The notes beneath the pieces are model-generated. The model was given only the letters and a program-made list of their open reading frames with translations. It made no database searches and was not told the DNA's origin. A DNA stretch of 64,000 nt from Candidatus Nomurabacteria bacterium (GTDB lineage: Bacteria; Patescibacteriota; Patescibacteriia; HK-STAS-PATE-3): assembly GCA_023898465.1 (NCBI GenBank), contig CP060223.1:256001-320000 (forward strand), in the 5' to 3' direction. Position 1 is the stretch's first letter, and every line of letters begins with the position of its first letter. The translations under genes were made by a program, and so were the position numbers. Shown here piece after piece: positions 4,399-43,195 of this stretch.

Positions 4399-5495
4399 GT
4401 TTTTGGCTTGTCAACGGTATTTTTTTCCTAAGCAGTTTTGTGCTGGCTGCCTTGAGCACGCCGCTTTTTCGCCGGATCGCATATCGATTTCATTTACTTG
4501 ACACCCCGGCCAGCGCACCAGAACGAAAACTGCAGACTCAGCCAATTCCTTTACTTGGAGGTTGGGCGATTTTCTTTTCCTTTACCATGGTTATTCTTTT
4601 GGGTGCGTGGCTCGGCTGGTTTCAGGATGGAGTCATAAGCGCAAAAGCCTTGTATGGTGTGCTCCTCGGTGGTGGACTCATTATGGTTGGCGGTACAATA
4701 GATGATAAGTGGGGAGTAGGCCCGGCTAAGCAACTTATTTGGTCCTTCCTCGCTTGTGCTATTGTTGTGGTTTCAGGAATTGGCATCAGCTTCATTACCA
4801 ATCCATTTGGGGGTGAGTTACGCTTAGACACGCTTTCCTGGTCCGTGTTCACCATGAATGATATTTCTTATCAATTTGTGGTGTGGGCTGATCTGCTCAC
4901 TTTAGCTTGGCTCATGGGCATGATGTATACGACCAAGCTGCTTGATGGTTTAGATGGACTAGTGTCCGGAGTTGGTGCAATTGCCAGCCTTATTCTTTTT
5001 GGCGTCACCCAACTGCAAGATGTGCAGCAAGCGACCACGGGATATATTGCGCTCGCGCTGGCCGGGGCTTGTCTGGGTTTCCTTATATATAATTTTTCGC
5101 CAGCGAAGATATATTTGGGACAAGGTGGAAGTTTGCTTATCGGATTTTTCTTAGGTGTGCTTTCCATCGTGAGTGGAGGAAAAATTGCTACCGCACTTCT
5201 GGTGATGGGGATTCCGATACTGGATGTGGCGTGGGTGATTCTTCGTCGAGTGATTATCGAAAAGCGTTCGCCGCTCTCGGCAGATCGTAAGCATTTGCAT
5301 TTTCGTTTACTCGATGTTGGCTTTAGTCATCGCGGCGCCGTTCTTTTTCTCTATCTGCTCACAGCATTATTCGGTAGTGCGACATTATTCTTCCGAGGAG
5401 TGGCCAAGCTATACGCGCTCGGAGCGCTTCTCTTGGTTATGTGTGCCTTGGGTATCTGGCTCGTACGTCGATATCAAGGTTTCAATAAATCGTAG
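4395..5495 (+). CDS. Glycosyltransferase family 4 polyprenyl-phosphate HexNAc-1-phosphate transferase (WecA/MraY superfamily)
   Basis: 366-aa protein with about 10 TM helices. It has the DDKWG loop, TTKLLDGLDGL, and NFSPAKIYLGQGGSLLIG, characteristic of the MraY/WecA family. Confidence 0.75.
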   Translation: MSFWLVNGIFFLSSFVLAALSTPLFRRIAYRFHLLDTPASAPERKLQTQPIPLLGGWAIFFSFTMVILLGAWLGWFQDGVISAKALYGVLLGGGLIMVGGTIDDKWGVGPAKQLIWSFLACAIVVVSGIGISFITNPFGGELRLDTLSWSVFTMNDISYQFVVWADLLTLAWLMGMMYTTKLLDGLDGLVSGVGAIASLILFGVTQLQDVQQATTGYIALALAGACLGFLIYNFSPAKIYLGQGGSLLIGFFLGVLSIVSGGKIATALLVMGIPILDVAWVILRRVIIEKRSPLSADRKHLHFRLLDVGFSHRGAVLFLYLLTALFGSATLFFRGVAKLYALGALLLVMCALGIWLVRRYQGFNKS

Positions 5496-5498
5496 TCT

Positions 5499-5993
5499 AT
5501 GCAGCGACGTTTTTTCATTGGCCTCATTGTCGTGCTGCTAGGGCTGGCGGCCGGCATAGTTTGGTGGCTTTGGTTCGCGCCAGTGAGCACAAGCGGTACG
5601 CCGACGAGTGGCGATGGTCAGGCAAAGCTGACTATTCATGAACATGAGTTCCTTGTTGATCTAGCTATTCGATCAGAAACGCAAGCTACTGGCTTAGCCT
5701 ATCGTGATGATTTGGCGAGTGACAGGGGAATGTTGTTCCTTTTTACCGAGCCGCAGAGATTGAGTTTTTGGATGAAAGGTATGCGTTTTCCTCTTGATAT
5801 TATTTGGATACGAGATCAGCGGGTCATCGCTATTAGCCCTGAGGTCCCGCTAGCGCCTCGACGGGGCATTTTGCCAACCTATGCACCAAAAAGCCCAGCC
5901 GATGCCGTGCTTGAGGTCAGAGCGGGATTAGCAAAAAACCTAGGAATTTCGGTCGGTGACACAGTTTCTTGGGAGATATTGACGTCAGAGTGA
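5499..5993 (+). CDS. DUF192 domain protein (N-terminal membrane anchor)
   Basis: 164 aa with an N-terminal TM helix. It carries RGMLFLF..FWMKGMRFPLDIIWI, typical of DUF192. Confidence 0.7.
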   Translation: MQRRFFIGLIVVLLGLAAGIVWWLWFAPVSTSGTPTSGDGQAKLTIHEHEFLVDLAIRSETQATGLAYRDDLASDRGMLFLFTEPQRLSFWMKGMRFPLDIIWIRDQRVIAISPEVPLAPRRGILPTYAPKSPADAVLEVRAGLAKNLGISVGDTVSWEILTSE

Positions 5994-6016
5994 GTGCGTG
6001 CTAGCATACTGCCGTT

Positions 6017-6346
6017 ATGCCTAAAGAAGAAAACAAGCAACTCGCGGTTATTGCCCAGGGCGGACGTCAATATGTAGTTCGGCCAAACGCAAAAATTACG
6101 GTCAATTCTTTCACCCATGAAGGCGACACTGTCACGCTCGATAATGTGCTTTTAGTGCATGATGGAAAAACCACCAAGGTTGGTAAGCCTCAAGTGGAGG
6201 GTGCCACGGTTACCGCAAAAGTGCTGAAAGTAGGCAAAGGTAAAAAAGTAGTTATTCAAAAGTACAAGCCAAAGGTACGATACCGTCGCAAGACCGGTCA
6301 TCGCCAAGGTATTGTTGAATTGCAGATACAGGATATTCATTCCTAA
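6017..6346 (+). CDS. rplU: 50S ribosomal protein L21 (bL21)
   Basis: 109 aa. AVIAQGGRQYVV...KVLKVGKGKKVVIQKYKPKVRYRRKTGHRQ matches the bL21 pattern. Confidence 0.9.
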   Translation: MPKEENKQLAVIAQGGRQYVVRPNAKITVNSFTHEGDTVTLDNVLLVHDGKTTKVGKPQVEGATVTAKVLKVGKGKKVVIQKYKPKVRYRRKTGHRQGIVELQIQDIHS

Positions 6347-6382
6347 GCACGAAGTTCGAATTTCGAAACAATATTAAAACAC

Positions 6383-6407
6383 GAATGTTTCAAACATTCT
6401 GTTTTTT
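6383..6407. terminator. Bidirectional rho-independent terminator between rplU (+) and recR (-)
   Basis: GAATGTTT-C-AAACATTC hairpin flanked by a T-run on the plus strand (tgttttttg) and by a run of A residues on its 5' side (aaaac), which reads as a T-run downstream of the hairpin on the minus strand. Confidence 0.6.
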
Positions 6408-6434
6408 GTAATAAAGCTTGTTAGTATTTCGAGA

Positions 6435-7058
6435 TTAGGAATTTTGAGTTTGGTCAGCCTGCATGGCACTTCTCCCTTTTATCGCATTGGAGAGCGTTAC
6501 CTCGTCAGTGTATTCCAAATCGCTTCCCATTGGTAAGCCACGGGCCAGGCGGGTGACTTTTACATGCAGGGGTTTTAACTGCTGATGAAGATATAAGCCG
6601 GTTGCCTCACCCTCCATATCGGGGTTTGTAGCGATAATAAGTTCCTCGATAGATTCTTTCTGCACTCGATCAAGGAGTTGAGTCACGCGCAGTTGCTCAG
6701 GACCGATGCCGTCAATTGGATTGAGTACGCCGCCTAAAACATGATAGCGTCCCTGATACTCACCAGTACTCTCAATAGCCAGCATGTCAGCGCTGGTTGC
6801 TACTACACAGAGGGTATGCAAATCGCGTTGCGTGTCACGGCAAATGCGACAGGGAGAGGATTCAGTATAGGTTCCACAGATCTCGCAGCTGCGCACCTGC
6901 TCTTTAAGCACGCGCAAACTATCCACCAGATGTTCAATCTGTTCCGGGGGCCGAGTGAGGAGATAGAGCACATAGCGCTCGGCGGTTTTACGACCAACAC
7001 CGGGCAGACGAGCAAAATCCTCGATCAAATCATGAATCGGGGCGGGGAATTGCGTCAT
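6435..7058 (-). CDS. recR: Recombination protein RecR
   Basis: 207 aa with an HhH region (LPGVGRKTAERY), a C4 zinc finger (CEICGTYTESSPCRIC) and a Toprim region. Confidence 0.9.
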   Translation of the reverse strand: MTQFPAPIHDLIEDFARLPGVGRKTAERYVLYLLTRPPEQIEHLVDSLRVLKEQVRSCEICGTYTESSPCRICRDTQRDLHTLCVVATSADMLAIESTGEYQGRYHVLGGVLNPIDGIGPEQLRVTQLLDRVQKESIEELIIATNPDMEGEATGLYLHQQLKPLHVKVTRLARGLPMGSDLEYTDEVTLSNAIKGRSAMQADQTQNS

Positions 7059-7364: not shown

Positions 7365-7436
7365 AGTATGGGAAGTTTAGCAAAAATACCCAATTCTGTC
7401 ACTCTGAAACAAGTTCAGGGTGACAACTGCTTGTGT

Positions 7437-8786
7437 TTAAAATGGTTCCTGAACTCGGGTTTCGAGGTTTTTGAAACTCACCGTGTTCTCATCGAAGAAC
7501 ATTTGCACGATGCCGGTAGGGCCATTACGGTGCTTGGCAATGTGAATTTCAGCCACATTGCGTCGGTCGGTCTCGGGCTTATAGAGTGCTTCACGATAGA
7601 TAAACATCACCACGTCGGCATCTTGCTCAATAGAACCGGATTCGCGCAGGTCGGCCAGCTTTGGTATCGGAGGAGTGCGGGATTCCACTGCACGAGAAAG
7701 CTGAGAAAGTGCTAAGACCGGCACATCGAGCTCTTTTGCAATACCCTTGAGTCCACGCGTGATTTCCGCAACCTGCTGCACACGGCTCTCTGAATCAACA
7801 CGTCCTTCCATTAACTGGAGGTAGTCGACAACAAGTAAGCCGAGGCCGTGTTCAGTTTTGAGGCGACGGGCCTTGGTGCGCATTTCCATGACCGAGGTCA
7901 CTGCTGAGTCATCGATGAAAATTTGTGCTTCGGATAGCGTACCAATCGCGTGGCCAATGCGAGGGAAGTCATCATCCTGTTCATCAGATGAGAGTTTACC
8001 AGTACGCATTTTCCAAAGGCTAACACCAGCTTCAGCACAGATCATACGATCGACCAATTGCTCCTTGGACATTTCTAAGCTGAAAATGCCAACCGGTTGC
8101 TTGCTCTTAATCGCCACATTACGGGCCAGGTCCATTGCCAGCGAAGTTTTACCAACTGATGGACGGGCAGCTAAAATAATGAGGTCAGAACGTTGTAAGC
8201 CCGCCAGGATATTATCAAGATCAGTGTAGCCAGTTGGTAAACCGCGCAGAGTACCACTTTGCTTATGCAGCTCGTCGATGCGTTCAAAAGCATCTGATAG
8301 GGCGCTTTGCAGACTGATAAACTGCTGGCGCATGTATTTTTGCGAGACCTCGAAGAGTCGCTGTTCAGCTTGGTCCAGCAGAATATCAACCTCGTCGGTT
8401 TCTTTATAGCCCAGCGCATTAATTTCCTGAGAAGCACCAATCAAGCGACGCAGCGTAGCCTTGCGTTGCACAATATTGGAATGATGCACGATATTTGAGG
8501 CAGTTGCTACGGCGTTAGAAAGTTCCGCCAAATAACTACGTCCGCCAATCATCTCGAGCTGTTTTCGCTCATTCAGGCGATTGGTGAGCGAGAGGATGTC
8601 GATAGGCTCCTGCTTGGCATAGAGCTCCAACATAGCCTCAAAAATCATTCGATGCGTGTCCTTATAAAAGTCCTCTGGCCGCAGCTGGTCCGCAATCTTA
8701 ATAATGGCGTCTTTATCTATAAGTAGACTGCCAAGAGTGGCCTGCTCTGCTTCGATATTCTGGGGTGGGATGATTTCCTGTGGCAT
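7437..8786 (-). CDS. dnaB: Replicative DNA helicase DnaB
   Basis: 449 aa with PQNIEAEQATLGSLL at the N-terminus, Walker A (ARPSVGKTS), and VVDYLQLM. No intein is present. Confidence 0.95.
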   Translation of the reverse strand: MPQEIIPPQNIEAEQATLGSLLIDKDAIIKIADQLRPEDFYKDTHRMIFEAMLELYAKQEPIDILSLTNRLNERKQLEMIGGRSYLAELSNAVATASNIVHHSNIVQRKATLRRLIGASQEINALGYKETDEVDILLDQAEQRLFEVSQKYMRQQFISLQSALSDAFERIDELHKQSGTLRGLPTGYTDLDNILAGLQRSDLIILAARPSVGKTSLAMDLARNVAIKSKQPVGIFSLEMSKEQLVDRMICAEAGVSLWKMRTGKLSSDEQDDDFPRIGHAIGTLSEAQIFIDDSAVTSVMEMRTKARRLKTEHGLGLLVVDYLQLMEGRVDSESRVQQVAEITRGLKGIAKELDVPVLALSQLSRAVESRTPPIPKLADLRESGSIEQDADVVMFIYREALYKPETDRRNVAEIHIAKHRNGPTGIVQMFFDENTVSFKNLETRVQEPF

Positions 8787-9523: not shown

Positions 9524-9598
9524 GGGTCCATAGCTCAATGGTAGAGCAACTGCCTTTTAAGCAGTGGGTTGGTGGTTCGAGCCCACCTGGACCCACCA
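9524..9598 (+). tRNA. tRNA-Lys (anticodon UUU), CCA encoded
   Basis: Cloverleaf read by eye. Acceptor GGGTCCA/TGGACCC, anticodon stem ACTGC/GCAGT with loop CTTTTAA, T-arm GGTGG-TTCGAGC-CCACC, discriminator A plus CCA. Confidence 0.9.
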
Positions 9599-9662
9599 GT
9601 CATATCGCGCTTTTTGCATACCCAAGAAGCGAGACCCAGCATAGCGTGGGTCTCGTGTGAGT

Positions 9663-10079
9663 TCAGACGCCTTTGCGGGCGTGGGGATTGTGGCGATAGA
9701 TCGCCATTCCCGGCTTTGCGGTACTGGGAACCTCGATCAGGATATCTCCGCTAGCACCGAAGACGTTTCGCGTCGTTGCCCCGAGGTCAACACGCAGGGT
9801 TGTCAGAGGCGCTGCTCCGAGCGGATCCCCGAGACAAATAATGTCTCGATCATGCAGCGTCACTCCTTGTTTGAGGCTGGCCGTATGCGTTCGTTGGAAC
9901 TGCACACTGCCGAGTACGCCAATCTTGATCCAGTCGGTCTGCGTAGCCGCTTGCGTCGACATAGTACCCCCATTCTTCCAGTGAAAGGCACGCACGGATC
10001 TCATCCTGAGAATGTGCAAATCTTGCCACGGAGTGTAGCGCTGTGGATTTTCTTTGTCAAGCAAAACGGACACACTCAA
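9663..10079 (-). CDS. Hypothetical protein (GC-rich island)
   Basis: The 138-aa ORF starts at a TTG. An internal ATG at 9962 (MSTQAATQTDWIKIG...) has a G-rich Shine-Dalgarno-like sequence and may be the real start. A 9-bp hairpin at 9631-9657 lies downstream. I recognised no family. Confidence 0.4.
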   Translation of the reverse strand: MSVSVLLDKENPQRYTPWQDLHILRMRSVRAFHWKNGGTMSTQAATQTDWIKIGVLGSVQFQRTHTASLKQGVTLHDRDIICLGDPLGAAPLTTLRVDLGATTRNVFGASGDILIEVPSTAKPGMAIYRHNPHARKGV

Positions 10080-10100
10080 GTGAGGTGTCCGTAGTTGGGG

Positions 10101-10972: not shown

Positions 10973-11391
10973 TACTTGACAACCCACTTCACAGGAGTAC
11001 ACTAAATGCACAATTGGTGGCGATCTCTGCCTGGCACTGACCAGGTTGTCCGGAGACGCCATGTTTTTGTATGCGCGTGTTCTTCCTCCTTGCCGCAGGG
11101 TGTAGCTCGGCTCCGCTCGCTACCCATTTCTCGGCATCGGTCTCTTTGCGATGATCGAAACGAAGAGCGTCTTTTTCTACTCTCCTGCAGGGGCGGTGCG
11201 GGAGCGCGGAATAGTTCCGGGCTTCATTTCCTCACATGAGGAAAGCGGCTTTGTTGCCGTTTTGCACCTTGAAATGCATGGAGGTTCGCCATGACTTGGC
11301 GTTTCCGACTCTTCCTGCTCATGGCCATCGCGTTGACCATGACACCCCTCGCTTTCATGACCGGCTGCCAGGAGCTGCCGACGGAGGGGGA
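10973..11391 (+). repeat. Copy A of a duplicated promoter + leader + lipoprotein signal-peptide module
   Basis: Near-identical to 14570..14894, except for a block of about 94 nt present only in copy A and a few substitutions. It ends 33 codons into the downstream CDS. Confidence 0.9.
10976..11003 (+). promoter_or_regulatory. Sigma70-like promoter (TTGACA-N16-TACACT) of module copy A
   Basis: Consensus -35 hexamer and a near-consensus -10, conserved base for base in copy B (14573..14600). Confidence 0.5.
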
Positions 11392-12028
11392 TTCACAGGA
11401 TCAAGTGGTTGAGAGTCCGGAAGCTCAACCCGGTCCAGCGATTCAGTCTACTGGGCCCGAATGGTATAATCAGGTCGTAAGTGAAGCAAAGTACACATTG
11501 TGCCAGCTTCGAAACGGCACATCGCATGAGGTCTATCAGGGTAAGGCTATGGGTGATTGGCCCTACCCACATCAAGGGGATTGTTGTAACGCCCTTGGTG
11601 TAGTCCGTCAATATATGTACGGTGGTGGCTCTCCAGGACCGCTTGGCGAATGGAATGGCTTCCAGCAAGGCGGTTGGTGCAAGTTCTTTGTCAACTTGGT
11701 GCTCTACCGCTCTAGCTATGGCTACCCGGGCGGACATTTGCTCTTGCCCACTTCTACGTATCGTTACAATAATCCACGCCCGGTTTCCGAAGCACAACCT
11801 GGATGGATCTTGCAGTCAGAAACACTACCTCATACTGCGATCGTAGTAGAACGACTAGGCGGTGGCTTGGATGTAATCGATTCAAACTGGATCGGAACTT
11901 ACAAGCGTCCGGACGGAAGTTATTACTACTCATATGCCATCGCAAGGCATGAAATCACAAATACGGAGTTGGATCGCTACGATTTCATGGCATATCGTCC
12001 GCATGAGGCGTGCGTGCTGCATAACTAG
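11291..12028 (+). CDS. Lipoprotein, CHAP / NlpC-P60 superfamily peptidoglycan amidase/peptidase
   Basis: Signal peptide with lipobox (LAFMTGC). Candidate catalytic Cys in GGWCKFFVNLV and His in LPHTAIVVE...DVIDSNW, the CHAP-like Cys/His/polar arrangement. Shine-Dalgarno GGAGG lies 7 nt upstream. Confidence 0.75.
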   Translation: MTWRFRLFLLMAIALTMTPLAFMTGCQELPTEGDSQDQVVESPEAQPGPAIQSTGPEWYNQVVSEAKYTLCQLRNGTSHEVYQGKAMGDWPYPHQGDCCNALGVVRQYMYGGGSPGPLGEWNGFQQGGWCKFFVNLVLYRSSYGYPGGHLLLPTSTYRYNNPRPVSEAQPGWILQSETLPHTAIVVERLGGGLDVIDSNWIGTYKRPDGSYYYSYAIARHEITNTELDRYDFMAYRPHEACVLHN

Positions 12029-12101
12029 ATAGTGGGGGGTGCTGGAAAGTTTTTCAGTTCCCCCCACCTCCCACAAAGTCAATTATTTACTTCATAAGTA
12101 T

Positions 12102-12617
12102 ATGAAAAAAATCCAAATAGTCTTTCTCTTATTTTCAAGCATTGTTCTTGCGTCGGTGATTTTTTATTCCGGACATGCTATTTCATATAAAAATACAACC
12201 TACGGATATTCTTTTAGTACAATAAAAAAGTCTAATATTAAAGTTCTTGATCCAGCGCTTGTTCAAGTTTCAATTATAGGAGAAGAGGTTATTGAGGAGA
12301 GTCCAATAATAAACATATATGCTATTAAGTTGGAGCAAGATTCTTTGTCTGCAACCCAAGAACTTGAAACGTGGGTAGGGGAAGATCTTAATGGTTTCTC
12401 TGATATTAATATTCAGAGTACAACGACCGAAACAGAAAAAATAATTAACGTTACTTATACGGGAGGGGGGATGTCTGGAAGTATTAAATACGTCGGATTT
12501 TATGTTTTCAATCAGGAAGAAAAAACAATAATTAAGGTAGTAGCTTCTCAGTATAATGATAATATGGAATTGTTTGAGGCCTACAAAAAAATTCTTTCTT
12601 CCTTTCAGTTAATATAA
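12102..12617 (+). CDS. Hypothetical membrane-anchored/exported protein (AT-rich)
   Basis: The ORF track starts at the GTG at 12039. The ATG at 12102 gives MKKIQIVFLLFSSIVLASVIFYSG, a signal anchor. No family recognised. Confidence 0.55.
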   Translation: MKKIQIVFLLFSSIVLASVIFYSGHAISYKNTTYGYSFSTIKKSNIKVLDPALVQVSIIGEEVIEESPIINIYAIKLEQDSLSATQELETWVGEDLNGFSDINIQSTTTETEKIINVTYTGGGMSGSIKYVGFYVFNQEEKTIIKVVASQYNDNMELFEAYKKILSSFQLI

Positions 12618-13255
12618 TGACCACCACTCATCGTCTCCTCATATTACTCATTGTCGTAGTTGCCGCAGGCTTTCTCTATCTTGGATTAAGATCAGATTCC
12701 TCCGATGTAACAACGACGAACAAAACAGTCAACAAAGATTTCCGTGAACTTGAAATGCTCAGTTCAGCTGGTCACAAGGTGTTTCAATCAGAGAATTATG
12801 ATTTCACCTATACGATTGATCATGGTGTTGACTGGAGCGTTAGCGAGGCTGCAGAGCCGACTTTGCTCACCACTTGGTTTTCTTTACCAAATCCAAATAG
12901 TGAAGAGGAAGAAAGAGATGATATTCCGAATGGGTTTAATACCTTTGAAAAAAATAGTTTTCGACTTGATGTATATCCTAACTCAGGTTCAGTAAGTCCA
13001 AATGGAGAAGCGGAGCTAAAAGATTGGTTAAAAAATGATCTTAATAGTGAGTATATTCCTGGAAGCTTTTTAACCTTATCCATTGCAAGAAACCGTTTAT
13101 TCAAAGTAGTTGATTTTCAGGGGATTGATGTGCGAGAGGCGCATTATTATCTATTTGGCTCTGCATTTGTATATGTCTTTTCAAGCGGTGATTTCACTGA
13201 GCAAGAAATGCGCGAGTTTATTAGCGGTTTTACCTACGAAAGAGCGCCTTTATAA
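12617..13255 (+). CDS. Hypothetical membrane-anchored/exported protein (AT-rich)
   Basis: 212 aa with an N-terminal TM helix (LLILLIVVVAAGFLYLGL). The start is a TAATG overlap with the upstream gene. Confidence 0.55.
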   Translation: MTTTHRLLILLIVVVAAGFLYLGLRSDSSDVTTTNKTVNKDFRELEMLSSAGHKVFQSENYDFTYTIDHGVDWSVSEAAEPTLLTTWFSLPNPNSEEEERDDIPNGFNTFEKNSFRLDVYPNSGSVSPNGEAELKDWLKNDLNSEYIPGSFLTLSIARNRLFKVVDFQGIDVREAHYYLFGSAFVYVFSSGDFTEQEMREFISGFTYERAPL

Positions 13256-13462
13256 GCGCTTCATCTCATCTTTATTTCTTTACTTGACGCATCTCAGTAG
13301 TCCGAGCATAATCATTTTTGGGTAGTAACCCACGTTTTGATAAGCAGGAGAAGTACGGTAGATTCGATGGATGCGCCATGCGCACCCCATCTGCGTTGGA
13401 TTGTCACACTGAACCTCGGGTCAGGATAGCACCCTGACAAATCTGGAAAGAAAGGAGGCGTC

Positions 13463-14470
13463 ATGAACCGCCTGTTTGTCGTACTCGCGCTGATCACCAT
13501 CGGGGCTCTGGGTTTTGTTGGCTGCGGCGGTAAGGACGCCGCTACGAAGCCGGAAGAAATCCGCAGTCCAGATCAGATCGTGCAGTCTGAGATTGTCTAT
13601 ACCGTGAACCCAGACTACTCAGGGGTGAATGTTTCGTGGAAAACAAACATCCCGACAGTTGGAAGGGTGTACTATGGTAGGACTCCTCAACCAACTGACT
13701 ACGTCATCGAGGAGGTGAGCACTACTCAACATTTGTTGTGTGCACCTCGACTCAGGGGAGATGCGCTCTTCTACTTCCAAGTGCAATCATCCTTTTCCGA
13801 GGAAGTGATTAGCGCTCGGGAACCGAGCGAAGGCGATACACTTCGCACCCCACGATGGGTTGATTGGTCTCCACCTACCGTAAGATGGGTCGATCCTCGA
13901 GAAGGCGCAATAAAGGGCGGGACGATTGATCTCACTGTTTCGGCAAACGAATACGTTGTCAACGGGGTGGTAGAGGTGAAATTCTTTATCGATGGCAGGG
14001 TCATCGCTGTAGTGACTGAACCCGATGACGGTGATAAGATCTTCGTCGTGCATGACTTCAATACTACCCAGCTCACCGATGGCTTGCATAGCTTTCACGC
14101 GTTGGCAACAGATGTAAACGGTAACAGAGAGTCAAGGGGAATTACGGTCGACATCGACAACTCGAAGCCGGTCATCTATCGATGGGATGCTCCGAGAAAT
14201 CAGCGGGAGATCGGGAATTCTATCAATTTGCGAGTGGTGGCTCAGGACTTTCGTGGTGAACACGTCGATGATGTGTACATCACCCTCGATGGTCAACCAT
14301 TTGCGAGGCTTGAGGTGTGTGAACTGCGAGCTAGCGGCGTAGGAGATGTGTGGTGTAGAGACGTTGATACGTCGACGCTGTCACCCGGTCAGCACTACTT
14401 CGGTGCCGTTTCAGTAGATCATGCTGGCAACGAGTCAGATCCGGTCTACATCGGCGTCATCAAGCAGTAG
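13463..14470 (+). CDS. Lipoprotein with two tandem Ig-like (bacterial Ig / Big-like) domains
   Basis: Signal peptide with lipobox (LGFVGCGG). Two similar modules of about 90 aa (IDLTVSAN..VKFFIDG..TDGLHSFHALATDVNGN and INLRVVAQ..VYITLDG..SPGQHYFGAVSVDHAGN). Shine-Dalgarno AAGGAGG. Confidence 0.6.
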   Translation: MNRLFVVLALITIGALGFVGCGGKDAATKPEEIRSPDQIVQSEIVYTVNPDYSGVNVSWKTNIPTVGRVYYGRTPQPTDYVIEEVSTTQHLLCAPRLRGDALFYFQVQSSFSEEVISAREPSEGDTLRTPRWVDWSPPTVRWVDPREGAIKGGTIDLTVSANEYVVNGVVEVKFFIDGRVIAVVTEPDDGDKIFVVHDFNTTQLTDGLHSFHALATDVNGNRESRGITVDIDNSKPVIYRWDAPRNQREIGNSINLRVVAQDFRGEHVDDVYITLDGQPFARLEVCELRASGVGDVWCRDVDTSTLSPGQHYFGAVSVDHAGNESDPVYIGVIKQ

Positions 14471-14569
14471 CCTTTCCAGTCCGTCAGGAATCCAACAGAG
14501 CCTGGGATCATCGATCTCGGGCTCTTCTCTTTTTGATACGCTCCAGAATGAAAAAGTGAAGTTTACTAT

Positions 14570-14894
14570 TACTTGACAACCCACTTCACAGGAGTACACT
14601 AAATGCACAATTGGTGGCGATCTCTGCCTGGCACTGACCAGGATGTCTGGAGACGCCATGTTTTTGTATAGGCGTATTCCACCCTCCCTTGCCGTGGCGT
14701 TGGGGAGCGCGGAATAGTTCCGGGCTTCATTTCCTCACATGAGGAAAGCGGCTTTGTTGCCGTTTTGCACTTTGAAATGCATGGAGGTTCGCCATGACTT
14801 GGCGTTTCCGACTCTTCCTGCTCATGGCCATCGCGTTGACCATGACACCCCTCGCTTTCATGACCGGCTGTCAGGAGCTGCCGACGGAGGGGGA
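14570..14894 (+). repeat. Copy B of the duplicated promoter + leader + lipoprotein signal-peptide module
   Basis: See copy A. The two copies are offset by 3597 nt at the 5' end. The first 33 codons (MTWRFRLFLLMAIALTMTPLAFMTGCQELPTEG) are identical at protein level. Confidence 0.9.
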
Positions 14895-15492
14895 GACTTC
14901 GGTGATCTCTGATGAGTTGCCGGATGCTTCACCCTCAGCTCAGTCAAGCCCGATGACTTGGCCCTCTTCGATCCAGGATTTCAAACTCCCTTATGATGGG
15001 ATCCGGGATGCATGCGGGGGTCAGATTTGGAAGGTTGTTTGCGGGTACGGATGTGGTTATCATCACAACACAAACTACATGGCCGCCGCGTACCATTCGA
15101 TTGATCTTGTACGGCAGGATGCGCCGACCACTCATAGCGCAGTACTCGCTCCGGCGCGTGGCATCGTTTCGTTTGTCGGATGGAGGAATGGGTACGGTTG
15201 GTGCGTGGAGATGGATCATCGAAACGGCTGGAAGTCGCTTGTGGCCCATCTCGAAACGGATCCTTGGGAATTCGTCCATACCTATGACGACCTGCGGCAG
15301 GGGACTTTCCTGGGCTATGCAGGGAACAGCGGAGCGAGTACGACACCCCACATTCACTTCTCGGTGTGGCGGAACAACGTCACTCATACGCTCGATGGCG
15401 TATCGTTGATCAACCCGCGTCTAAATGGGCGATACAATTCCGGCAATGATTATGTTGCGCCACCGACGGGAAATCCGAACCCGATTCCTTAA
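14794..15492 (+). CDS. Lipoprotein, M23 (LytM/lysostaphin-type) metallopeptidase
   Basis: The N-terminal 33 aa are the same as in the CHAP protein. GNSGASTTPHIHFSV matches the M23 HxH motif. An upstream YHSIDL stands where HxxxD is expected, with spacing one residue short. Confidence 0.8.
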   Translation: MTWRFRLFLLMAIALTMTPLAFMTGCQELPTEGETSVISDELPDASPSAQSSPMTWPSSIQDFKLPYDGIRDACGGQIWKVVCGYGCGYHHNTNYMAAAYHSIDLVRQDAPTTHSAVLAPARGIVSFVGWRNGYGWCVEMDHRNGWKSLVAHLETDPWEFVHTYDDLRQGTFLGYAGNSGASTTPHIHFSVWRNNVTHTLDGVSLINPRLNGRYNSGNDYVAPPTGNPNPIP

Positions 15493-15668: not shown

Positions 15669-16682
15669 ATGAATCGTTTTTCTATCTTCATCGCAGTGTT
15701 CGTTCTTATCAGCGCAGTGGTTTATGCTTTCTTTTTTGCTACATTATTTGGGGAAAAGAAAGCTATTGAAGGAGTGCAGGGACCTGCTTTTATGTTTGCA
15801 ACCCTGCCTGACTCAGATGCATCTGCCGCGATAAGCATTTTTGAGATTCCTACAATGTCGAAGCGAAAGGCTGAAGACACATCTTTGCCAATGCATTTTC
15901 TTAAAAAACTAGGAGATCCGAGAGAGTATTTTGATCCCATACTTTCTTCAAGTGGTGCATATTTGGCTTTTAATCGTAATATTGGGGAGCCGAAACAGGA
16001 TAAGACAAATTTAGTAATACTTGCAGCTGACGGAAAAGAAAGGAGCGTGGAGAGCGGCTCTGCTGGAGATATAGGAATAGGAATGCTCACGCCCTTGCAG
16101 TGGAGTGCTGATGAAAAAACGCTCTACGCTTTTTATACACACGCAACTGAAGGTAATATCGTAGGCCTGGTGGCAATTGATGTGGCAACTTTAAGCCAAC
16201 AACGAATTGAAAAAATTGATGATCTACGTGTAAGTAACTACGTCTTTGATGAAGTCGGAAATACCTACGGTTTTGAACCGCACTATCGATTCCGCCCTGA
16301 AGACGAGGCTCAAACAACCTTTTATCGAATTTCTTTGACTAGTGGCGAAACAAAAAGCTTTACACTCCAGCAATCGAGTTTGGACGATCTCTTGACCGTA
16401 GATCCAAGCGGGAGATACCTCGTGTACGCAAACGGAGATGATTTTAATTCTCGTAACATTTGGATGTATGACATGGAAACCGGTGAGGAGCGCGCGTTGA
16501 CTGAAAATGCTGTTGTTAATGAAATTTTGCCCTGGAAAGATGGATATTTGGTATTTCTGGAGGAAAGTGTAAACACCCCCGCAGAAAAAACACTTGTATC
16601 ATACGATGTAAATTCTGGCATTCGCAAAGTTCTTTTAGAAAATGTTACAGGGACGTTCCGGCTTCTTGGTTGGTATCCCTAA
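15669..16682 (+). CDS. Membrane-anchored beta-propeller-like protein (TolB/PD40-like repeats)
   Basis: 337 aa with an N-terminal TM helix. Repeated D-P-S-G-x-Y-L-(V/A)-(Y/F) type segments (LSSSGAYLAFN, DPSGRYLVYANGD...IWMYDMETGEERALT) resemble WD40-like/PD40 blades. Confidence 0.5.
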   Translation: MNRFSIFIAVFVLISAVVYAFFFATLFGEKKAIEGVQGPAFMFATLPDSDASAAISIFEIPTMSKRKAEDTSLPMHFLKKLGDPREYFDPILSSSGAYLAFNRNIGEPKQDKTNLVILAADGKERSVESGSAGDIGIGMLTPLQWSADEKTLYAFYTHATEGNIVGLVAIDVATLSQQRIEKIDDLRVSNYVFDEVGNTYGFEPHYRFRPEDEAQTTFYRISLTSGETKSFTLQQSSLDDLLTVDPSGRYLVYANGDDFNSRNIWMYDMETGEERALTENAVVNEILPWKDGYLVFLEESVNTPAEKTLVSYDVNSGIRKVLLENVTGTFRLLGWYP

Positions 16683-16940: not shown

Positions 16941-17600
16941 ATGTTAGGTTATCTTTTGCTCATTATATCGGTTGTAGAGTTTTTTATTGGCCTGTACCTT
17001 ATTTTTCGCTATGAAAAAAGCCAGGCAACAACATATTACGGTCTCTTTGCAATAAGTGTTGCGATCTATGTTGCCGCGAACGGTTTCGGATTTACCCGAG
17101 CTTCTGATAACGAGTTTATTTTTGAGCAACTTGCTTGGTTTGGCGGCTTACTTAGCGCCCCATTTATCCTTGGCTTCAGTTATAGCTTTCCTAGCCCTAA
17201 AAAATATCCCACTGAGCTATTTCCGTGGGTAATTTGGCCAGTAGTGTTATTTGGCGCAGGAATTTTTACTTCAAATATTTTCCTGGAGAAAACGTATATT
17301 TATTCCTTTGCCGAAGGCTACACTGCGCCAATCGGTGTCTTTTTCTGGTTCGCCATTGCAGTATTTGCGATGTATTGGATATGGGCAATACGAAACCTGC
17401 TGTATACGAGATTGCACACAAGCGGTTTTTATAGGAATTTTCTTACCATTGTGCTCATAGGGCTTTTTTCATCACTGCTTATTTCAGCAATTTTTGATAT
17501 TTACATTCCCTTAGTTTCAGTCACGCGCTACGGATATATTGGAGCATTATTCTCGTCTATTTGGCTGTTTACTACCGCGTATTTAATGGTGAGGAAGTAA
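16941..17600 (+). CDS. Stand-alone 7TM module, paralog 1 (histidine-kinase N-terminal 7TM-like)
   Basis: 219 aa with about 7 hydrophobic helices. Aligns by eye with the first 230 aa or so of the kinase at 23014. Ends ...TTAYLMVRK* where the kinase reads ...ISYAIIRHR and continues. Confidence 0.8.
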   Translation: MLGYLLLIISVVEFFIGLYLIFRYEKSQATTYYGLFAISVAIYVAANGFGFTRASDNEFIFEQLAWFGGLLSAPFILGFSYSFPSPKKYPTELFPWVIWPVVLFGAGIFTSNIFLEKTYIYSFAEGYTAPIGVFFWFAIAVFAMYWIWAIRNLLYTRLHTSGFYRNFLTIVLIGLFSSLLISAIFDIYIPLVSVTRYGYIGALFSSIWLFTTAYLMVRK

Positions 17601-17601
17601 G

Positions 17602-18261
17602 ATGATTGGATATATATTACTCATTATCTCAGTTGTTGAAGTAATACTCGGTTTTTATTTGATTTTTCGATATGTAAAAAGTCCAGCAACTATATATTAC
17701 GGCCTATTCGCGCTAAGTGTAGCACTCTATGTAGGTGCAAACGGGTATGGTTTTAGTCCGTTTTCAGAAAATGATATATGGCTGGAAATAATTGCCTGGA
17801 TTGGCGGGACCTTTACCGCTCCTTTTATTCTTGGCTTCAGTTACTCATTCCCTTATCCACGTAAGTCCAATAAGGAAATACTGTCTTTAGTTCTTAGTCC
17901 ACTCGTTTTTTTCTTCGTCGTAATACTTTTTTCTAATACTTTTGTAGATCATAATAGTGTTATCAGCTTTGATGAAGGATTTCAAAGACCTGTCGGGGAG
18001 TTACACTGGTTTGTATTATCAGTATTCTTTTTCTATTGGGTTTGGTCTTTTATTGAACTAGTAAAGAGTCGAAAAAAATCCGACGGCTTTAATAAGAATT
18101 TTCTTCTTATTTTAATTATAGGCTTAGTTTTTTCTTTGTTGGTTTCGGTATTTACTAACATCATTCATCCACTTGTCGATGTTTCAAAGTTAGGTTATAT
18201 GGGCCCCTTAGCCTCTTCAATCTGGCTATTTATTACTGGGTACTTGATATTGAGGAAGTAA
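17602..18261 (+). CDS. Stand-alone 7TM module, paralog 2
   Basis: 219 aa, collinear with paralog 1 (LLIISVVE..YLIFRY.KS.AT.YYGLFA, APFILGFSYSFP, SSIWLF). Starts 1 nt after the upstream stop. Confidence 0.8.
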   Translation: MIGYILLIISVVEVILGFYLIFRYVKSPATIYYGLFALSVALYVGANGYGFSPFSENDIWLEIIAWIGGTFTAPFILGFSYSFPYPRKSNKEILSLVLSPLVFFFVVILFSNTFVDHNSVISFDEGFQRPVGELHWFVLSVFFFYWVWSFIELVKSRKKSDGFNKNFLLILIIGLVFSLLVSVFTNIIHPLVDVSKLGYMGPLASSIWLFITGYLILRK

Positions 18262-18932
18262 TGAACACCTTTCATTTAGTTTTACTTTTTACACTTTTCT
18301 TTATTCACGCGACTCTCGCAATATGGATGTTGCGTAGATATGTGCAGACGCTATCCATTCGTTATTACTCAGGCTTTTTATTTGGACTAGCACTTATTGC
18401 ACTATTAAATGGTTTATTGCTGTTATTTGGCGGTCAGGAGAGTCAAACAGTCCTTCATAAGATCGGCTTTATCTCAGGCACCTTCACTTTTGTGATGTTC
18501 TTTATGTTTAGTAAGTACTTTCCAATTTCTACTGCAAGACCAAACTCCCGCGACATTCTTTTTTGGGTAATTCCGATTACATTTTTTATTCCATTCATAC
18601 TTTTTAATCAGCAGTTTATCCAGTCTGTGATTATAGAAAATGGAATAAGTAAGCCTACATTTGGAGTCTGGTATACACCATTTATGTTAGTTTTGGCCAC
18701 CTTTGTTCTGGGGGCTATCTATAATCTCATACAGAAATATAAAATAACCACTGAACTTGAAATTAGGAAGAACATTAGAGACATTACGGCAGTATTTTTC
18801 GTATCAGGACTCCTTGGCTTTTTGTTGGACGTTGTGTTGCCAAGGTTTAATGTTTATACGGCACATTACTTTGCCATTGAATCTTCACTTTTTGTTGCGC
18901 TAACTACTGCAATTATTATTGCAAAGAAGTAA
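18261..18932 (+). CDS. Stand-alone 7TM module, paralog 3 (divergent)
   Basis: 223 aa with the same helix layout. TAATG overlap with paralog 2. Ends ...AIIIAKK*. Confidence 0.75.
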   Translation: MNTFHLVLLFTLFFIHATLAIWMLRRYVQTLSIRYYSGFLFGLALIALLNGLLLLFGGQESQTVLHKIGFISGTFTFVMFFMFSKYFPISTARPNSRDILFWVIPITFFIPFILFNQQFIQSVIIENGISKPTFGVWYTPFMLVLATFVLGAIYNLIQKYKITTELEIRKNIRDITAVFFVSGLLGFLLDVVLPRFNVYTAHYFAIESSLFVALTTAIIIAKK

Positions 18933-18933
18933 G

Positions 18934-19605
18934 ATGAAAGAGTTTCTCATCATTGCAAATTATCTGGTTGGAATAGGGGAGTTGATGCTCGCTGGATATT
19001 TTTGGAAAACAAACAGCGGCAGCGCAATTCGGAAGGTGATGGTGTTGTTGGCGTTTTCGACTGGTATGTGGGTCATTTTTACCGGAACCTTTACCTACCG
19101 CTGGATTTTGCTTGATTACTTTGATCTCGGCATATCATTTGTATATTTCTTTGGAATTTTGTTCCTTACCGCCTTACTTCATTTAGTAATTCTCTTTCCT
19201 CACAAGATTTTCCCGTTTGATAGGCTACATACAGTTTTGTTGTATATTCCAACACTCATATTAGGTTTTGCCGCTTTTACTCCAGCGATAATTAAAGAAA
19301 ATATCACTCCGTCGAGCGGGTATACCACAAGTTATCCCGGACCAGCACATTGGATGTTTAATAGCTATCTTTTTCTCATGTATGCAATGGTGATAATCCT
19401 ACTCATTGTTAAGATCAAGCGTTTTGATGGATTTAGCAGAGATAACGCAAAAACTTTGCTTTGGGGTATTATTTTAGGCGGCCTACCCATCGTTTTCTTA
19501 GATTTGGTTTTGACAACTTTGGGCATCTACCCAAATGCTGCCGTTGCCAGCCTTTTCACAGTTGTCTGGCTTGGGTTTACTACTTACATAATTGTACGGA
19601 AATGA
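18934..19605 (+). CDS. Stand-alone 7TM module, paralog 4
   Basis: The ATG at 18934 lies 1 nt after the paralog 3 stop (ORF track start is 18919). Ends ...TTYIIVRK*. Confidence 0.75.
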   Translation: MKEFLIIANYLVGIGELMLAGYFWKTNSGSAIRKVMVLLAFSTGMWVIFTGTFTYRWILLDYFDLGISFVYFFGILFLTALLHLVILFPHKIFPFDRLHTVLLYIPTLILGFAAFTPAIIKENITPSSGYTTSYPGPAHWMFNSYLFLMYAMVIILLIVKIKRFDGFSRDNAKTLLWGIILGGLPIVFLDLVLTTLGIYPNAAVASLFTVVWLGFTTYIIVRK

Positions 19606-20288
19606 ACGGAGAAATAGTATTTTTTGATTTAATTTTACTTAGCGTTGTTGGATTATTAGAATTAGCCTTTGGGATTTATTTAATAGTCCGTTATGTGAGG
19701 ACAAGTTCGATAGTATTTTTTGCACTTTTCGTTTTCTTTCTTTCTTTGTGGGTGCTTACAAATGCGGCTGCTTTCGTAATACCAATACATAATGTCTTCT
19801 TTGATATTGATTCAAAGTTGAGTTTTGTTTTTGCAATATTACTTTTTCCAGCGCTATACTTATATGTAATTAATTTTCCCATCCCTACAATATTAATAAA
19901 TTGGCGTTTAATACTTTTTGTGTTTACTGCGCCAATACTTCTTAGTACAATGATTTTAGGGTCGGGAACGGTTGTATTTGGATTTGATAAATTGATAGAG
20001 AATCAGCCAACTATATTTGGAGAAGCTTTTTGGGCCTATTCTTTTTATATGTTGTTCATGTATGCAATTATTTTATTTGAATTAATAAGGCAGATTAATA
20101 AGTCCAAGGGTTCTCACAGATGGTATGCACAAATTTTATTTTTTGCTGTTTTCATTTCTGGCGCAATAGGGCTATTATTTAATCTTGTTCTGCCTTCGAT
20201 GTTCGATATTAGAATTGCTTATTGGATAGCCCCATCTAGTTCAATTATTTGGCTTGCTCTTGTTTGGTGGGCGACGCAGAGGAAATAA
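19602..20288 (+). CDS. Stand-alone 7TM module, paralog 5
   Basis: ATGA overlap with paralog 4. The ORF track start at 19461 runs inside paralog 4. Ends ...SSSIIWLALVWWATQRK*. Confidence 0.75.
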   Translation: MNGEIVFFDLILLSVVGLLELAFGIYLIVRYVRTSSIVFFALFVFFLSLWVLTNAAAFVIPIHNVFFDIDSKLSFVFAILLFPALYLYVINFPIPTILINWRLILFVFTAPILLSTMILGSGTVVFGFDKLIENQPTIFGEAFWAYSFYMLFMYAIILFELIRQINKSKGSHRWYAQILFFAVFISGAIGLLFNLVLPSMFDIRIAYWIAPSSSIIWLALVWWATQRK

Positions 20289-20290
20289 TT

Positions 20291-20959
20291 ATGGATTATG
20301 GTGTATACTTATTATTAGTTATTGCGGGCCTAGAACTTTGGTTGACAATATACATATTTACTCGCTACCAAAGAACAAAAGCTATTTTTTTCTTTGGACT
20401 CTTTACTGCTTGTGTGACTGGATGGGTGCTAACTAATTCTATTCCGCTTCTTTTTTCCTATTCAAGTTGGCAATCTGATTTTTTGCAACGCCTCTCGTTT
20501 TCTTTTGCTGCATTTATTTTTCCTTTTCTTTATTATTATATTCTTTTACATCCATTTCCAAGCATTGATATCAACAAGCGATTCATATTATTCACATCCC
20601 TCCCGGCCTTCTTTGTTTCTATTGCCACTCTCTTTGATAAAAACTTTGTTATAGGATTCTATGATACCTCAGTAAGGGCAACAATATACGGCGACTCTTT
20701 TTGGATGTATGCGGTAGTTATGTTGCTATTTGCAATTCTTATTCCTGTGGAAATAATTTTAAAAAGAAGAAGACTGGATGGATATTATCGCTACCAATTC
20801 AAATTATTATTCAGCGCCTATTTGTTTTCAGCGGCAGTAGGATTACTAATTAATTTAATATTGCCATATTTTTTCGACTTAAAAATTAACTATTGGCTTG
20901 GGCCCGCGTCATCGATTATTTGGGTGAGTATGGTTTGGTGGGTTATTAATAGAAGGTAA
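20291..20959 (+). CDS. Stand-alone 7TM module, paralog 6
   Basis: The ATG lies 2 nt after the paralog 5 stop. Closest to paralog 5 (..ASSIIWVSMVWWVINRR*). Confidence 0.75.
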   Translation: MDYGVYLLLVIAGLELWLTIYIFTRYQRTKAIFFFGLFTACVTGWVLTNSIPLLFSYSSWQSDFLQRLSFSFAAFIFPFLYYYILLHPFPSIDINKRFILFTSLPAFFVSIATLFDKNFVIGFYDTSVRATIYGDSFWMYAVVMLLFAILIPVEIILKRRRLDGYYRYQFKLLFSAYLFSAAVGLLINLILPYFFDLKINYWLGPASSIIWVSMVWWVINRR

Positions 20960-20981
20960 TGTTTAATTGCGATTTTCAAAA

Positions 20982-26216: not shown

Positions 26217-26333
26217 GCCAGTCAATAATCTCATCCTTGACAGAGCCGGTGGTTTTTGTATACTTTCTGGCCCTGTTCTTTCCCATCGCGAATATCGGCA
26301 ACGGCCTCATTCTTAACATGTTTGGGAGGCCGT

Positions 26334-26531: not shown

Positions 26532-26547
26532 GCGGGATTCTTTTTTT
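26516..26547 (+). terminator. Rho-independent terminator
   Basis: GAATCCTGCC / GGCGGGATTC stem followed by TTTTTTT. Confidence 0.7.
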
Positions 26548-43194: not shown

Positions 43195-43195
43195 T

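Follow-up and report, generated by a model that had tools for sequence, protein, structure and literature searches.

The window, i.e., the whole stretch of 64,000 nucleotides of DNA that was analysed, comes from a Candidatus Nomurabacteria genome (MAG). Five open reading frames, g1 to g5, had been described within it by an earlier note, and all five are found on a single strand with exactly those coordinates; the first two are annotated by NCBI as H6760_01260 and H6760_01265. A further gene, g6, lies beyond the region which that note covered. In order, the features of the locus are these:

10973-11391 (419 nt), forward strand: repeat copy A, consisting of promoter, leader, ribosome-binding site (GGAGG) and codons 1-33 of g1
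10976-11003, forward strand: promoter of copy A, sigma-70-like, TTGACA-16-TACACT
11291-12028, forward strand: g1, 245 aa, a predicted lipoprotein (Cys26); a disordered linker leads into an NlpC/P60-CHAP-like papain-fold domain
12102-12617, forward strand: g2, 171 aa, AT-rich, membrane helix at the N-terminus; 1 base is shared between its stop and the start of g3
12617-13255, forward strand: g3, 212 aa, AT-rich; an N-terminal membrane helix (residues 4-24) is joined by a short linker to an extracytoplasmic domain of PsbP/Mog1 fold
13284-13312: a promoter-like site of g4's own, g4 having its own ribosome-binding site as well
13463-14470, forward strand: g4, 335 aa, a predicted lipoprotein (FVGC) with Ig-like domains
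14497-14525, forward strand: an intrinsic-terminator-like hairpin, 13-bp stem with a T tail, closing the g4 unit just upstream of repeat copy B
14570-14894 (325 nt), forward strand: repeat copy B, carrying promoter and ribosome-binding site as in copy A, a leader, and codons 1-33 of g5
14573-14600, forward strand: promoter of copy B, the same as that of copy A
14794-15492, forward strand: g5, 232 aa, a predicted lipoprotein whose domain is that of an M23 metallopeptidase
15669-16682, forward strand: g6, 337 aa, AT-rich (GC3 0.36), membrane helix at the N-terminus

A tRNA-Lys gene is found 1.4 kb upstream of this locus, which adjoins as well a 7TM sensor array, a HisKA_7TM-GAF-HisKA kinase and a receiver protein.

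The description of g2 and g3 as AT-rich, signal-anchored proteins is borne out, both by their composition (GC of 0.32 and 0.39, GC3 of 0.27 and 0.32, respectively, versus 0.52-0.56 for g1, g4 and g5) and by their N-terminal membrane helices, a feature which g6 shares. As read by eye, the hydrophobic N-terminus instead closes with MTGC (Cys26) in g1 and g5 and with FVGC in g4. The strict lipobox pattern, [LVI][ASTVI][GAS]C, is unmatched at position -3 in all three (M-T-G-C26 in g1 and g5, F-V-G-C in g4), Met at -3 being a non-classical lipobox residue. A G-C at the g1 lipobox position is kept, however, in most homologues of g1.

The direct repeat, from which g1 and g5 obtain their shared promoter, leader and signal peptide, is absent from the earlier note. 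The two copies are 95-99% identical apart from one 93-nt indel, and both start exactly at the promoter and end at codon 33/34. The leader of copy A is about 280 nt long, including the 93-nt insertion that copy B lacks, with a fold z-score of -2.8, and that of copy B is about 187 nt long with a fold z-score of -4.0. No RNA family was matched by the leader in Rfam, nor was its conservation found outside of near relatives. At the protein level, the g1 and g5 N-termini are identical over 33 aa, i.e., over the predicted lipoprotein signal peptide and the CQELPTEG linker.

As g1 and g5 owe promoter, leader and their opening 33 codons to this repeat, the region is organised as two parallel operons, that is, a hydrolase and then its companion or companions, twice over, rather than an island. 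The two hydrolases had previously been viewed as ‘bracketing’ the genes between them, which is a misreading, as the strong terminator at 14497-14525 along with the duplicated promoters give rise instead to separate transcription units.

The product of g1 had been called a CHAP lipoprotein, a claim that holds at the level of fold and superfamily but not at that of Pfam sequence matching. No Pfam family is matched by g1 at E<=0.1, including CHAP (PF05257) and NLPC_P60 (PF00877), and the sole NCBIfam match is to TIGR02594 (E 0.07); sub-threshold CHAP matches (E about 0.008) are seen only with the distant family members L034 and L035. The AF2 model of g1 (pLDDT 86) nevertheless has a papain-like alpha+beta fold, in which a helix begins at C130, a strand (181-189) begins at H181, and D197 and N199 fall at the end of or just past a further strand (192-198). 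These four residues, along with H220, are invariant across 29 sequences. Given this modelled fold and the placement of its catalytic Cys, His and polar residues, g1 would belong to the NlpC/P60-CHAP superfamily (clan CA wall hydrolases), and may be described as a predicted NlpC/P60-CHAP-like cysteine peptidase. Its family is small: of 5.8 billion proteins, about 36 are homologues.

The identification of g5 as an M23 peptidase is borne out, with a match to Peptidase_M23 (PF01551) of 66.8 bits versus a cut-off of 28.7 (E 2e-18), agreement from NCBIfam, and PDB relatives that include TagE, Csd3 and LytM. The unusual first metal motif that had been pointed out, YHSIDL, is indeed present, H101-S-I-D104 reading as H-x2-D; upon alignment with Csd3 it is Tyr100 that occupies the place of the canonical HxxxD histidine, the g5 histidine being displaced by +1. 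The other M23 residues are present (D104, His152 within AHL, and H186-I-H188), and candidate zinc ligands are H101 or else the upstream H90/H91. As judged from the sequence, this shifted first histidine makes the activity of g5 uncertain. Matches to phage endolysin and peptidase PHROGs are seen with g5 as well. The proposal of two lytic enzymes of different kinds is supported, with g1 and g5 both credible as exported peptidoglycan hydrolases, of different classes. For g6, which follows g5, no family was detected in Pfam or NCBIfam and no relatives were detectable; its position, and the pattern at other loci, suggest that it is a candidate companion of g5.

Of the two proteins that had been assigned to no known family, g2 remains so, having no detectable relatives, though its position is equivalent to that of a diverged g3-family paralogue in a related locus (L009, 823-1410), and g2 itself could be such a paralogue. 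By contrast, g3 can be placed, i.e., within a family of PsbP/Mog1-fold proteins that recurs after papain-fold hydrolase lipoproteins. Its AF2 model (pLDDT 89) is an alpha-beta-alpha sandwich of PsbP/Mog1 fold, and Foldseek matches it with PsbP (E 1.7e-4, probability 1.00). The family carries the motif NRDTPNGFNT. No Pfam PsbP or PsbP_2 match is seen with g3 itself, and such matches are only faint in family members and neighbours. On its modelled fold, g3 is a member of an otherwise undescribed family of membrane-anchored PsbP/Mog1-fold proteins. That fold resembles the one of Tsi3, a muramidase-neutralising protein. In the Foldseek comparison of g3, a check that the earlier note had proposed, PsbP nevertheless ranked above any immunity protein, and Tsi3 was not among the best matches. 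As a scaffold for binding, the PsbP/Mog1 fold is generic, and many of its users, such as PsbP, Mog1, DcrB, LpqN and Eag chaperones, are not immunity proteins. The predicted Ig-like-domain lipoprotein, g4, is as had been described (Pfam Big_7, E 5e-10; FVGC N-terminus). An adhesin-like role for g4, on the other hand, lacks comparative support, as g4 was not found in any related locus.

Across the related CPR loci, hydrolase and companion recur together. All 11 independent loci of the g1 family possess a same-strand gene for an exported or membrane-anchored protein 13-121 nt downstream, though these loci are mostly from related CPR lineages, such that part of the synteny may reflect common descent and not selection. 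The companion matches the g3-family HMM in six of the 11 (the window, L001, L034, L035, L039 and L042), with companions of other, unrelated types, about 380-510 aa in length, found in the remaining five. Further g3-family genes come after C39_2 lipoproteins (L009, L011 and L038). At every locus the GC3 of the companion is lower than that of its hydrolase.

N-terminal modules in several genomes are common to otherwise unrelated catalytic domains, as seen between the window's g5 and an L009 C39_2 protein (44% over 45 aa) and between the g1-type P0025 and the L042 C39_2 protein (61% over 57 aa, E 9e-20). There are tandem duplications as well with identical 5' ends but diverged bodies: the two C39_2 genes of L009 share a near-identical 118-nt 5' repeat (97%), their N-terminal 34 aa differing at one residue, and two g1-like genes of L004 are identical over at least 300 nt. 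The type of hydrolase found at the equivalent place varies among relatives, i.e., g1-type, C39_2, M23 or NlpC/P60. The chromosomal neighbours, by contrast, are kept across genomes (7TM array, kinase and cation ATPase), with the 7TM kinase and receiver protein adjoining the locus in the window and in L003, L007, L008, L011 and L039. The nearby response regulator is receiver-only, without a DNA-binding domain. Upstream of the g1 homologue in L008 is a Phage_holin_4_2 gene.

The reading favoured here, to which a probability of roughly one half may be given, is of polymorphic hydrolases with binding or neutralising partner modules, built upon one duplicated 5' module. One unit would consist of g1, g2 and g3 and a second of g5, probably then g6, with g4 transcribed independently between the two. 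The hydrolases would leave the cytoplasm by the Sec route and be anchored on the outer side of the cell membrane by a lipidated Cys plus flexible linker, with the AT-rich downstream products held at the same surface by their N-terminal helices. There, as immunity or inhibitor-like partners, these companions may bind their cognate hydrolase, either keeping it inactive or directing it upon the producer's own wall, the clearest case being g3, with its modelled domain of the kind used by Tsi3. Through the shared 5' module, g1 and g5 would come under one expression control and one route of export. As near-identical DNA, the module could serve also as a ‘handle’ for recombination by which cassettes, each a catalytic domain plus its companion, are exchanged or homogenised, with different hydrolase types therefore found at the equivalent place in relatives.

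To view g1 and g3 as an effector-immunity pair is to argue from gene adjacency and from fold likeness to Tsi3, g2 and g6 being given their roles by position. Against this reading as well, a lipid-tethered enzyme is not obviously able to reach the wall of another cell, nor is a dedicated delivery system found in the vicinity. The wall acted upon could, so far as sequence can say, be either that of a host or the producer's own. Of the traits of polymorphic toxin systems (sensu Zhang et al. 2012), shared N-terminal modules and variable companions are seen, the conserved portion being only a signal peptide plus short linker. A bolder version, unlikely as it stands, is that of a CPR Sec/lipoprotein polymorphic surface-hydrolase system. 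There the module of promoter, leader, signal peptide, lipobox and linker would be both export address and recombination handle, and NlpC/P60-like, C39-like and M23 domains would be swapped along with cognate membrane-anchored PsbP-fold immunity proteins. Wired to the 7TM sensor array, such a system would open host or competitor walls while protecting its producer.

If g1 and g5 are instead housekeeping autolysins, then they would remodel the cell's own wall during growth or division, with the anchored companions acting as activators, scaffolds or brakes, as IseA does on LytE/CwlO or EnvC/NlpD on amidases, and with the adjacent 7TM array, kinase and response regulator exerting WalRK-like control. 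CPR cells make peptidoglycan and require autolysins, and the enzymes here are predicted to be lipid-tethered to the producer's own membrane. The adjoining kinase and receiver protein, recurring at six loci, fit such a view, and the common promoter and leader of g1 and g5 are compatible with co-regulation. The receiver, however, is without a DNA-binding domain. The earlier note had looked for conservation of the hydrolases with division genes in relatives as the mark of ordinary autolysins, but neither division nor wall-synthesis genes adjoin them in any of about 12 related loci. Hydrolase type is not constant by place, the families are small and patchy, the companions are compositionally distinct and have diverged to the point of no detectable relatives, and tandem duplications retain identical 5' ends with diverged bodies. 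An autolysin role is possible, though on balance doubtful.

Decidedly improbable is a host-attack toolkit lacking immunity, in which the hydrolases and Ig-like protein would serve to break through and attach to the wall of a host bacterium, the small anchored ones being unrelated surface proteins. CPR bacteria studied so far are episymbionts, and two enzyme classes plus an Ig-like lipoprotein would suit such a role, but Nomurabacteria have no known host. In Vampirococcus, degradation of the host wall is a proposed role of secreted hydrolases (PMC8080830). The recurrent hydrolase-to-companion operon structure nonetheless argues for a functional tie between companions and enzymes, g4 is missing from all related loci, and no mechanism of release or delivery is evident. 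A phage or mobile-element lysis cassette inserted beside tRNA-Lys, with endolysin-like enzymes and holin- or spanin-like membrane proteins, would draw on that tRNA gene, the PHROG matches of g5, the L008 holin gene and the AT-richness of the companions, but is far-fetched given that Pfam finds no integrase, capsid, tail or other phage family among g0-g6 or in the flanks (window 4395-7058 and 16941-29721), that the enzymes carry predicted lipoprotein signal peptides, that the companions do not have the topology of holins but a large, folded domain outside the cytoplasm, that the same chromosomal neighbours occur across genomes, and that low companion GC3 is found at all loci, i.e., is not an island specific to the window.

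How ultra-small CPR bacteria handle walls, both their own and those of host cells, is largely unknown, and hardly any of their surface proteins have assigned roles. Two uncharacterised families without a Pfam model at gathering score, that is, CPR NlpC/P60-CHAP-like lipoproteins and membrane-anchored PsbP-fold proteins, are seen here to be genetically coupled, and export modules to be shuffled between different types of hydrolase. This bears on whether episymbionts carry enzyme-plus-immunity weaponry without an injection machine. Should regulated autolysis be true instead, then the companions are a candidate new class of autolysin partner.

Among known systems, the hydrolase-partner modules favoured above resemble T6SS pairs (Tae/Tai amidases and the Tse3-Tsi3 muramidase) in that a wall hydrolase gene is directly followed by one for a small extracytoplasmic protein, and in that the companions are highly divergent. 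They differ in that there is no T6SS or other injection apparatus here, the enzymes are predicted Sec lipoproteins of a monoderm-type CPR cell, and the companions, as putative neutralisers, lack sequence homology to Tai or Tsi families. A second likeness is to the LytE/CwlO D,L-endopeptidases of Bacillus subtilis, NlpC/P60 autolysins which are checked by a secreted protein inhibitor, IseA, as may be the case here with companions, and which are under WalRK, a two-component system being a candidate regulator here as well. IseA, though, is not known to be PsbP-like or to be encoded beside lytE, and the genes here are not conserved housekeeping ones, nor does the nearby response regulator possess an output domain. 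Predatory DD-endopeptidases of Bdellovibrio are accompanied by an ankyrin self-protection protein, Bd3460 (as cited in PMC8080830). Going by that citation, there too a bacterium-dependent bacterium secretes wall hydrolases along with a dedicated self-protection binder, as companions might be here, though enzyme classes and protector fold differ, the Bdellovibrio producer is Gram-negative and periplasmic, and its self-protection was shown experimentally whereas the present system is known from sequence and models. Comparable as well are APD1/APD2 of Amoebophilus asiaticus, which combine a lipobox and conserved N-terminus with polymorphic effector C-termini (Zhang et al. 2012, PMC3482391), and Neisseria MafB (PMC3482391). 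In these as here, interchangeable C-terminal effector domains follow an N-terminus that is conserved (signal peptide, lipobox and short module), with surface anchoring predicted in a host-dependent bacterium. Here, by contrast, the shared module is very short, i.e., a signal peptide plus about 8 residues, covers in this genome promoter and leader DNA as well, and is joined to effector domains all of which are wall hydrolases, each then followed by membrane-anchored companions.

Two predicted, exported wall hydrolases of different classes, here g1 and g5, are driven within this stretch by a duplicated promoter-leader-signal module. The genes involved, along with g6 as the next one downstream, come from a MAG assigned to Candidatus Nomurabacteria (CPR/Patescibacteria), on a contig 1.08 Mb long, the existing annotation of which gives g1 as H6760_01260 and g2 as H6760_01265, both of them hypothetical proteins. 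The first five are located exactly where the earlier note placed them, all on the plus strand.

11291-12028, plus strand: g1, predicted wall hydrolase, 245 aa
12102-12617, plus strand: g2, AT-rich, 171 aa
12617-13255, plus strand: g3, AT-rich, 212 aa
13463-14470, plus strand: g4, Ig-like, 335 aa
14794-15492, plus strand: g5, M23 peptidase, 232 aa
15669-16682, plus strand: g6, with N-terminal membrane helix

Ribosome-binding sites of the GGAGG type precede g1, g4, and g5, with none of that type before g2 and g3, which overlap by one base. The AT-richness ascribed to the unknowns holds, GC being 0.32 in g2 (GC3 0.27) and 0.39 in g3 (GC3 0.32) versus 0.52-0.56 in g1, g4, and g5. A further AT-rich island is seen at 40000-45000, with GC of 0.37-0.42, where the window otherwise averages about 0.48-0.52. 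The g1 and g5 products begin with a hydrophobic stretch that runs up to MTGC (Cys26), the g4 product has FVGC, and g2 and g3, as with g6, possess an N-terminal membrane helix. With such starts every product is, as read from sequence, plausibly extracytoplasmic, just as had been proposed, with the lipobox of g1, g4, and g5 departing from classical form at position -3.

The module itself is a direct repeat linking g1 and g5, with copy A found at 10973-11391 and copy B at 14570-14894, the two being 95-99% identical save for a 93-nt segment that is present in copy A only. Each copy opens exactly at TTGACA-16-TACACT (10976 in A, 14573 in B), predicted to be a strong, sigma-70-like promoter, continues through a leader of ~280 nt in copy A or ~187 nt in copy B, includes the ribosome-binding site, and then stops after codon 33, at ...C26-Q-E-L-P-T-E-G, past which g1 and g5 are unrelated. 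A terminator with a 13-bp stem (14497-14525) ends the g4 unit just 5' of copy B, and g4 has a promoter-like site of its own. Given the duplicated module, this terminator, and that g4 site, the locus therefore is not one bracketed island. The ‘bracketing’ of three exported unknowns by two hydrolases, that is, was a misreading, and the layout is instead one of two parallel units, P-leader-signal::g1-g2-g3 and P-leader-signal::g5(-g6), with g4 in between.

Folding of the leader is more stable than that of shuffled controls, with z of -2.8 (copy A) and -4.0 (copy B), which is suggestive only. As to a riboswitch or other known RNA, Rfam yields nothing for the shared leader, whether at gathering score or at E<=10. 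Compared across 16 related hydrolase genes, upstream sequences have nothing in common except for within-genome duplicates and one 33-nt stretch, 88% identical, which the window shares with L009, a contig carrying a related locus; leader conservation is not found beyond close relatives. A third copy of the promoter hexamers, TTGACA-17-TACACT, is on the minus strand at 10060-10032, near tRNA-Lys (9524-9598), and the 500-nt stretch around it, 9600-10100, holds only a doubtful 138-aa ORF and has no Rfam match at E<=1.

Exactly where signal module meets variable domain, DNA identity runs for 24 nt (AGCTGCCGACGGAGGGGGAGACT-like, encoding LPTEGE) between the window and L009, two different genomes whose signal peptides otherwise are only about 45% identical.

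Window 11368-11394: junction run
Window 14871-14897: junction run
L009 113-139: junction run
L009 2313-2339: junction run

As a candidate widespread site, the 19-nt junction motif AGCTGCCGACGGAGGGGGA was rejected, i.e., among 185,579 GTDB species genomes it is found only on the L009 contig and as chance matches in high-GC genomes.

The g5 product is an M23 peptidase, as first called (Pfam 66.8 bits, E 2e-18), with TagE, Csd3, and LytM as PDB relatives and with no record returned upon look-up of its exact sequence. The peculiarity of its first metal motif is real: this is H101-S-I-D104, with alignment to Csd3 putting the canonical HxxxD histidine on Tyr100 and the histidine one position later. 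His152 and H186-I-H188 are in place, and candidates for the zinc ligand would be H101 or instead upstream H90/H91. For g1, the designation ‘CHAP’ is good at the level of the NlpC/P60-CHAP superfamily but not at the level of family, as g1 matches no Pfam family. Its homologues number about 36, nearly all of them unnamed metagenomic proteins. Residues C130, H181, D197, N199, and H220 are invariant in a 29-sequence alignment, and in the AlphaFold model (pLDDT 86) a helix begins at C130 and a strand at H181. On the basis of those residues, their modeled placement, and that set of homologues, g1 is a new, CPR-restricted branch of this superfamily.

By word-indexed search g3 seemed an orphan; an exhaustive HMMER search yields 35 distant homologues, a family whose members, ~210 aa in length, carry a membrane helix along with the conserved motif NRDTPNGFNT. 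The g3 model (pLDDT 89) displays a PsbP/Mog1 fold, with 3hlz and PsbP in agreement by Foldseek and Tsi3 not near the top of the matches. The Tsi3 structure paper gives these same structural neighbours, i.e., 3hlz, Mog1, and PsbP (PMC3792639). The modeled fold, with neighbours in common with Tsi3, thus fits a role in immunity or inhibition, though it does not establish one. For g2 there are no relatives beyond itself, comparison with the g3 family giving an hhalign E of 0.012 at 3.6% probability, with HMM and jackhmmer searches negative. No signal relates g6 to the long companions of two other contigs, L003 and L007. The Ig-like domain of g4 is upheld, as Big_7 (Pfam), and no g4 counterpart is found at any related locus.

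Contexts of g1- and g3-family genes were scanned, using HMMs from the two family alignments, on about 15 independent contigs, with a metagenome scan using alignment A5 giving 5 loci. A ‘companion’, meaning an exported or membrane-anchored protein encoded just 3' of a hydrolase gene, is present at 11/11 g1-family loci, on the same strand, 13-121 nt downstream, and signal- or helix-bearing; no Pfam model reaches gathering score for these. The companion is g3-like, by HMM scan, in the window, L001, L034, L035, L039, and L042, that of L008 is related to that of L001, and g3-family genes are seen also 3' of Peptidase_C39_2 lipoproteins in L009, L011, and L038. Pairing of papain-fold hydrolase lipoproteins with membrane-anchored PsbP-fold proteins, that is, is recurrent. 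At every locus, whatever the genome composition, GC3 is lower in the companion than in its hydrolase (e.g., 0.19 vs 0.52, 0.31 vs 0.63, and 0.54 vs 0.87), and AT-richness therefore belongs to these genes rather than to a window-specific insertion.

L009 3073-3642: low-GC3 companion gene
L003 8806-10128: low-GC3 companion gene
L042 6197-6751: low-GC3 companion gene

L009 mirrors the window, consisting of a C39_2 lipoprotein, a g3 paralogue, a g3 homologue (36% identity, with overlapping start), a second C39_2 lipoprotein, and an AT-rich anchored protein. Both C39_2 genes have in common a 118-nt 5' repeat (97% identical), their N-terminal 34 aa differ at one residue, MWRKLRFVMFAMAVVA.PLLLVNGCAEKLPTEGE, and this N-terminal module is homologous to that of the window (44% over 45 aa). 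In L004 (5599-9763) a g1-like gene plus ~400-aa companion is duplicated in tandem, with 100% identity over the 5'-most 300 nt or more, enzyme bodies 34% identical, and an internal 300-nt block of the companions 97% identical, a mosaic pattern which suggests gene conversion. L042 (785-8067) holds, as a single array, three different papain-fold lipoproteins (C39_2, g1-type, and NlpC/P60) interleaved with small exported proteins of 170-190 aa, and the 57-aa N-terminal module of its C39_2 protein recurs, at 61% identity (E 9e-20), in P0025, which is of g1 type and comes from a different sample. Short N-terminal export modules are repeatedly common to unrelated catalytic domains.

An AT-rich stretch (GC 0.35) at 16941-23021 encodes nine tandem paralogues, membrane proteins of ~220-275 aa, and a direct scan of one of them, at 16941-17600, shows it to be HisKA_7TM-like. 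After these come:

22990-25785: HisKA_7TM-GAF-HisKA-HATPase kinase, 931 aa
25782-26216: receiver-only protein

This same combination (16941-26216 in the window) adjoins g1- or g3-family genes also in L003, L007, L008, L011, and L039. A sensor kinase in the neighbourhood, together with predicted lipid tethering of the hydrolases, speaks for the main rival explanation, which is regulated autolysis of the bacterium's own wall with companions serving as regulators. That rival fits poorly with a patchy distribution, with changes in hydrolase type between relatives, with tandem mosaics, and with extreme companion divergence. Nor are the hydrolases kept with division genes in relatives, as the earlier note had raised, since no cell-division genes are found beside any locus; no wall-synthesis or phage genes adjoin any locus examined. 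A prophage is rejected, the only PHROG matches being to the M23 domain. In L008 a Phage_holin_4_2 gene (7414-7785) lies directly 5' of the g1 homologue, with no other phage genes in that locus.

The effector/immunity reading, as also originally offered, is partly supported, that is, by the comparative and fold evidence, with the neutralising role itself being putative. Most economically, companions would bind their cognate hydrolases at the producer's surface, thereby neutralising or gating them. Near-identical 5' modules could equalise expression and export of both enzymes, and may let enzyme-plus-companion cassettes be swapped by recombination. Companion binding and enzyme activity are what we infer, as are the wall that is targeted, any shared regulation, and recombination.

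A literature search, not exhaustive, found no description of these families nor of their pairing in CPR. Predatory hydrolases of Bdellovibrio have known self-protection partners, as cited in PMC8080830. The arrangement is built from two undescribed CPR families, and is kin both to effector-immunity pairs, in its combining of a hydrolase with a putative neutralising companion, and to the lipobox-anchored polymorphic effectors of Amoebophilus (PMC3482391), which the arrangement in the window resembles.
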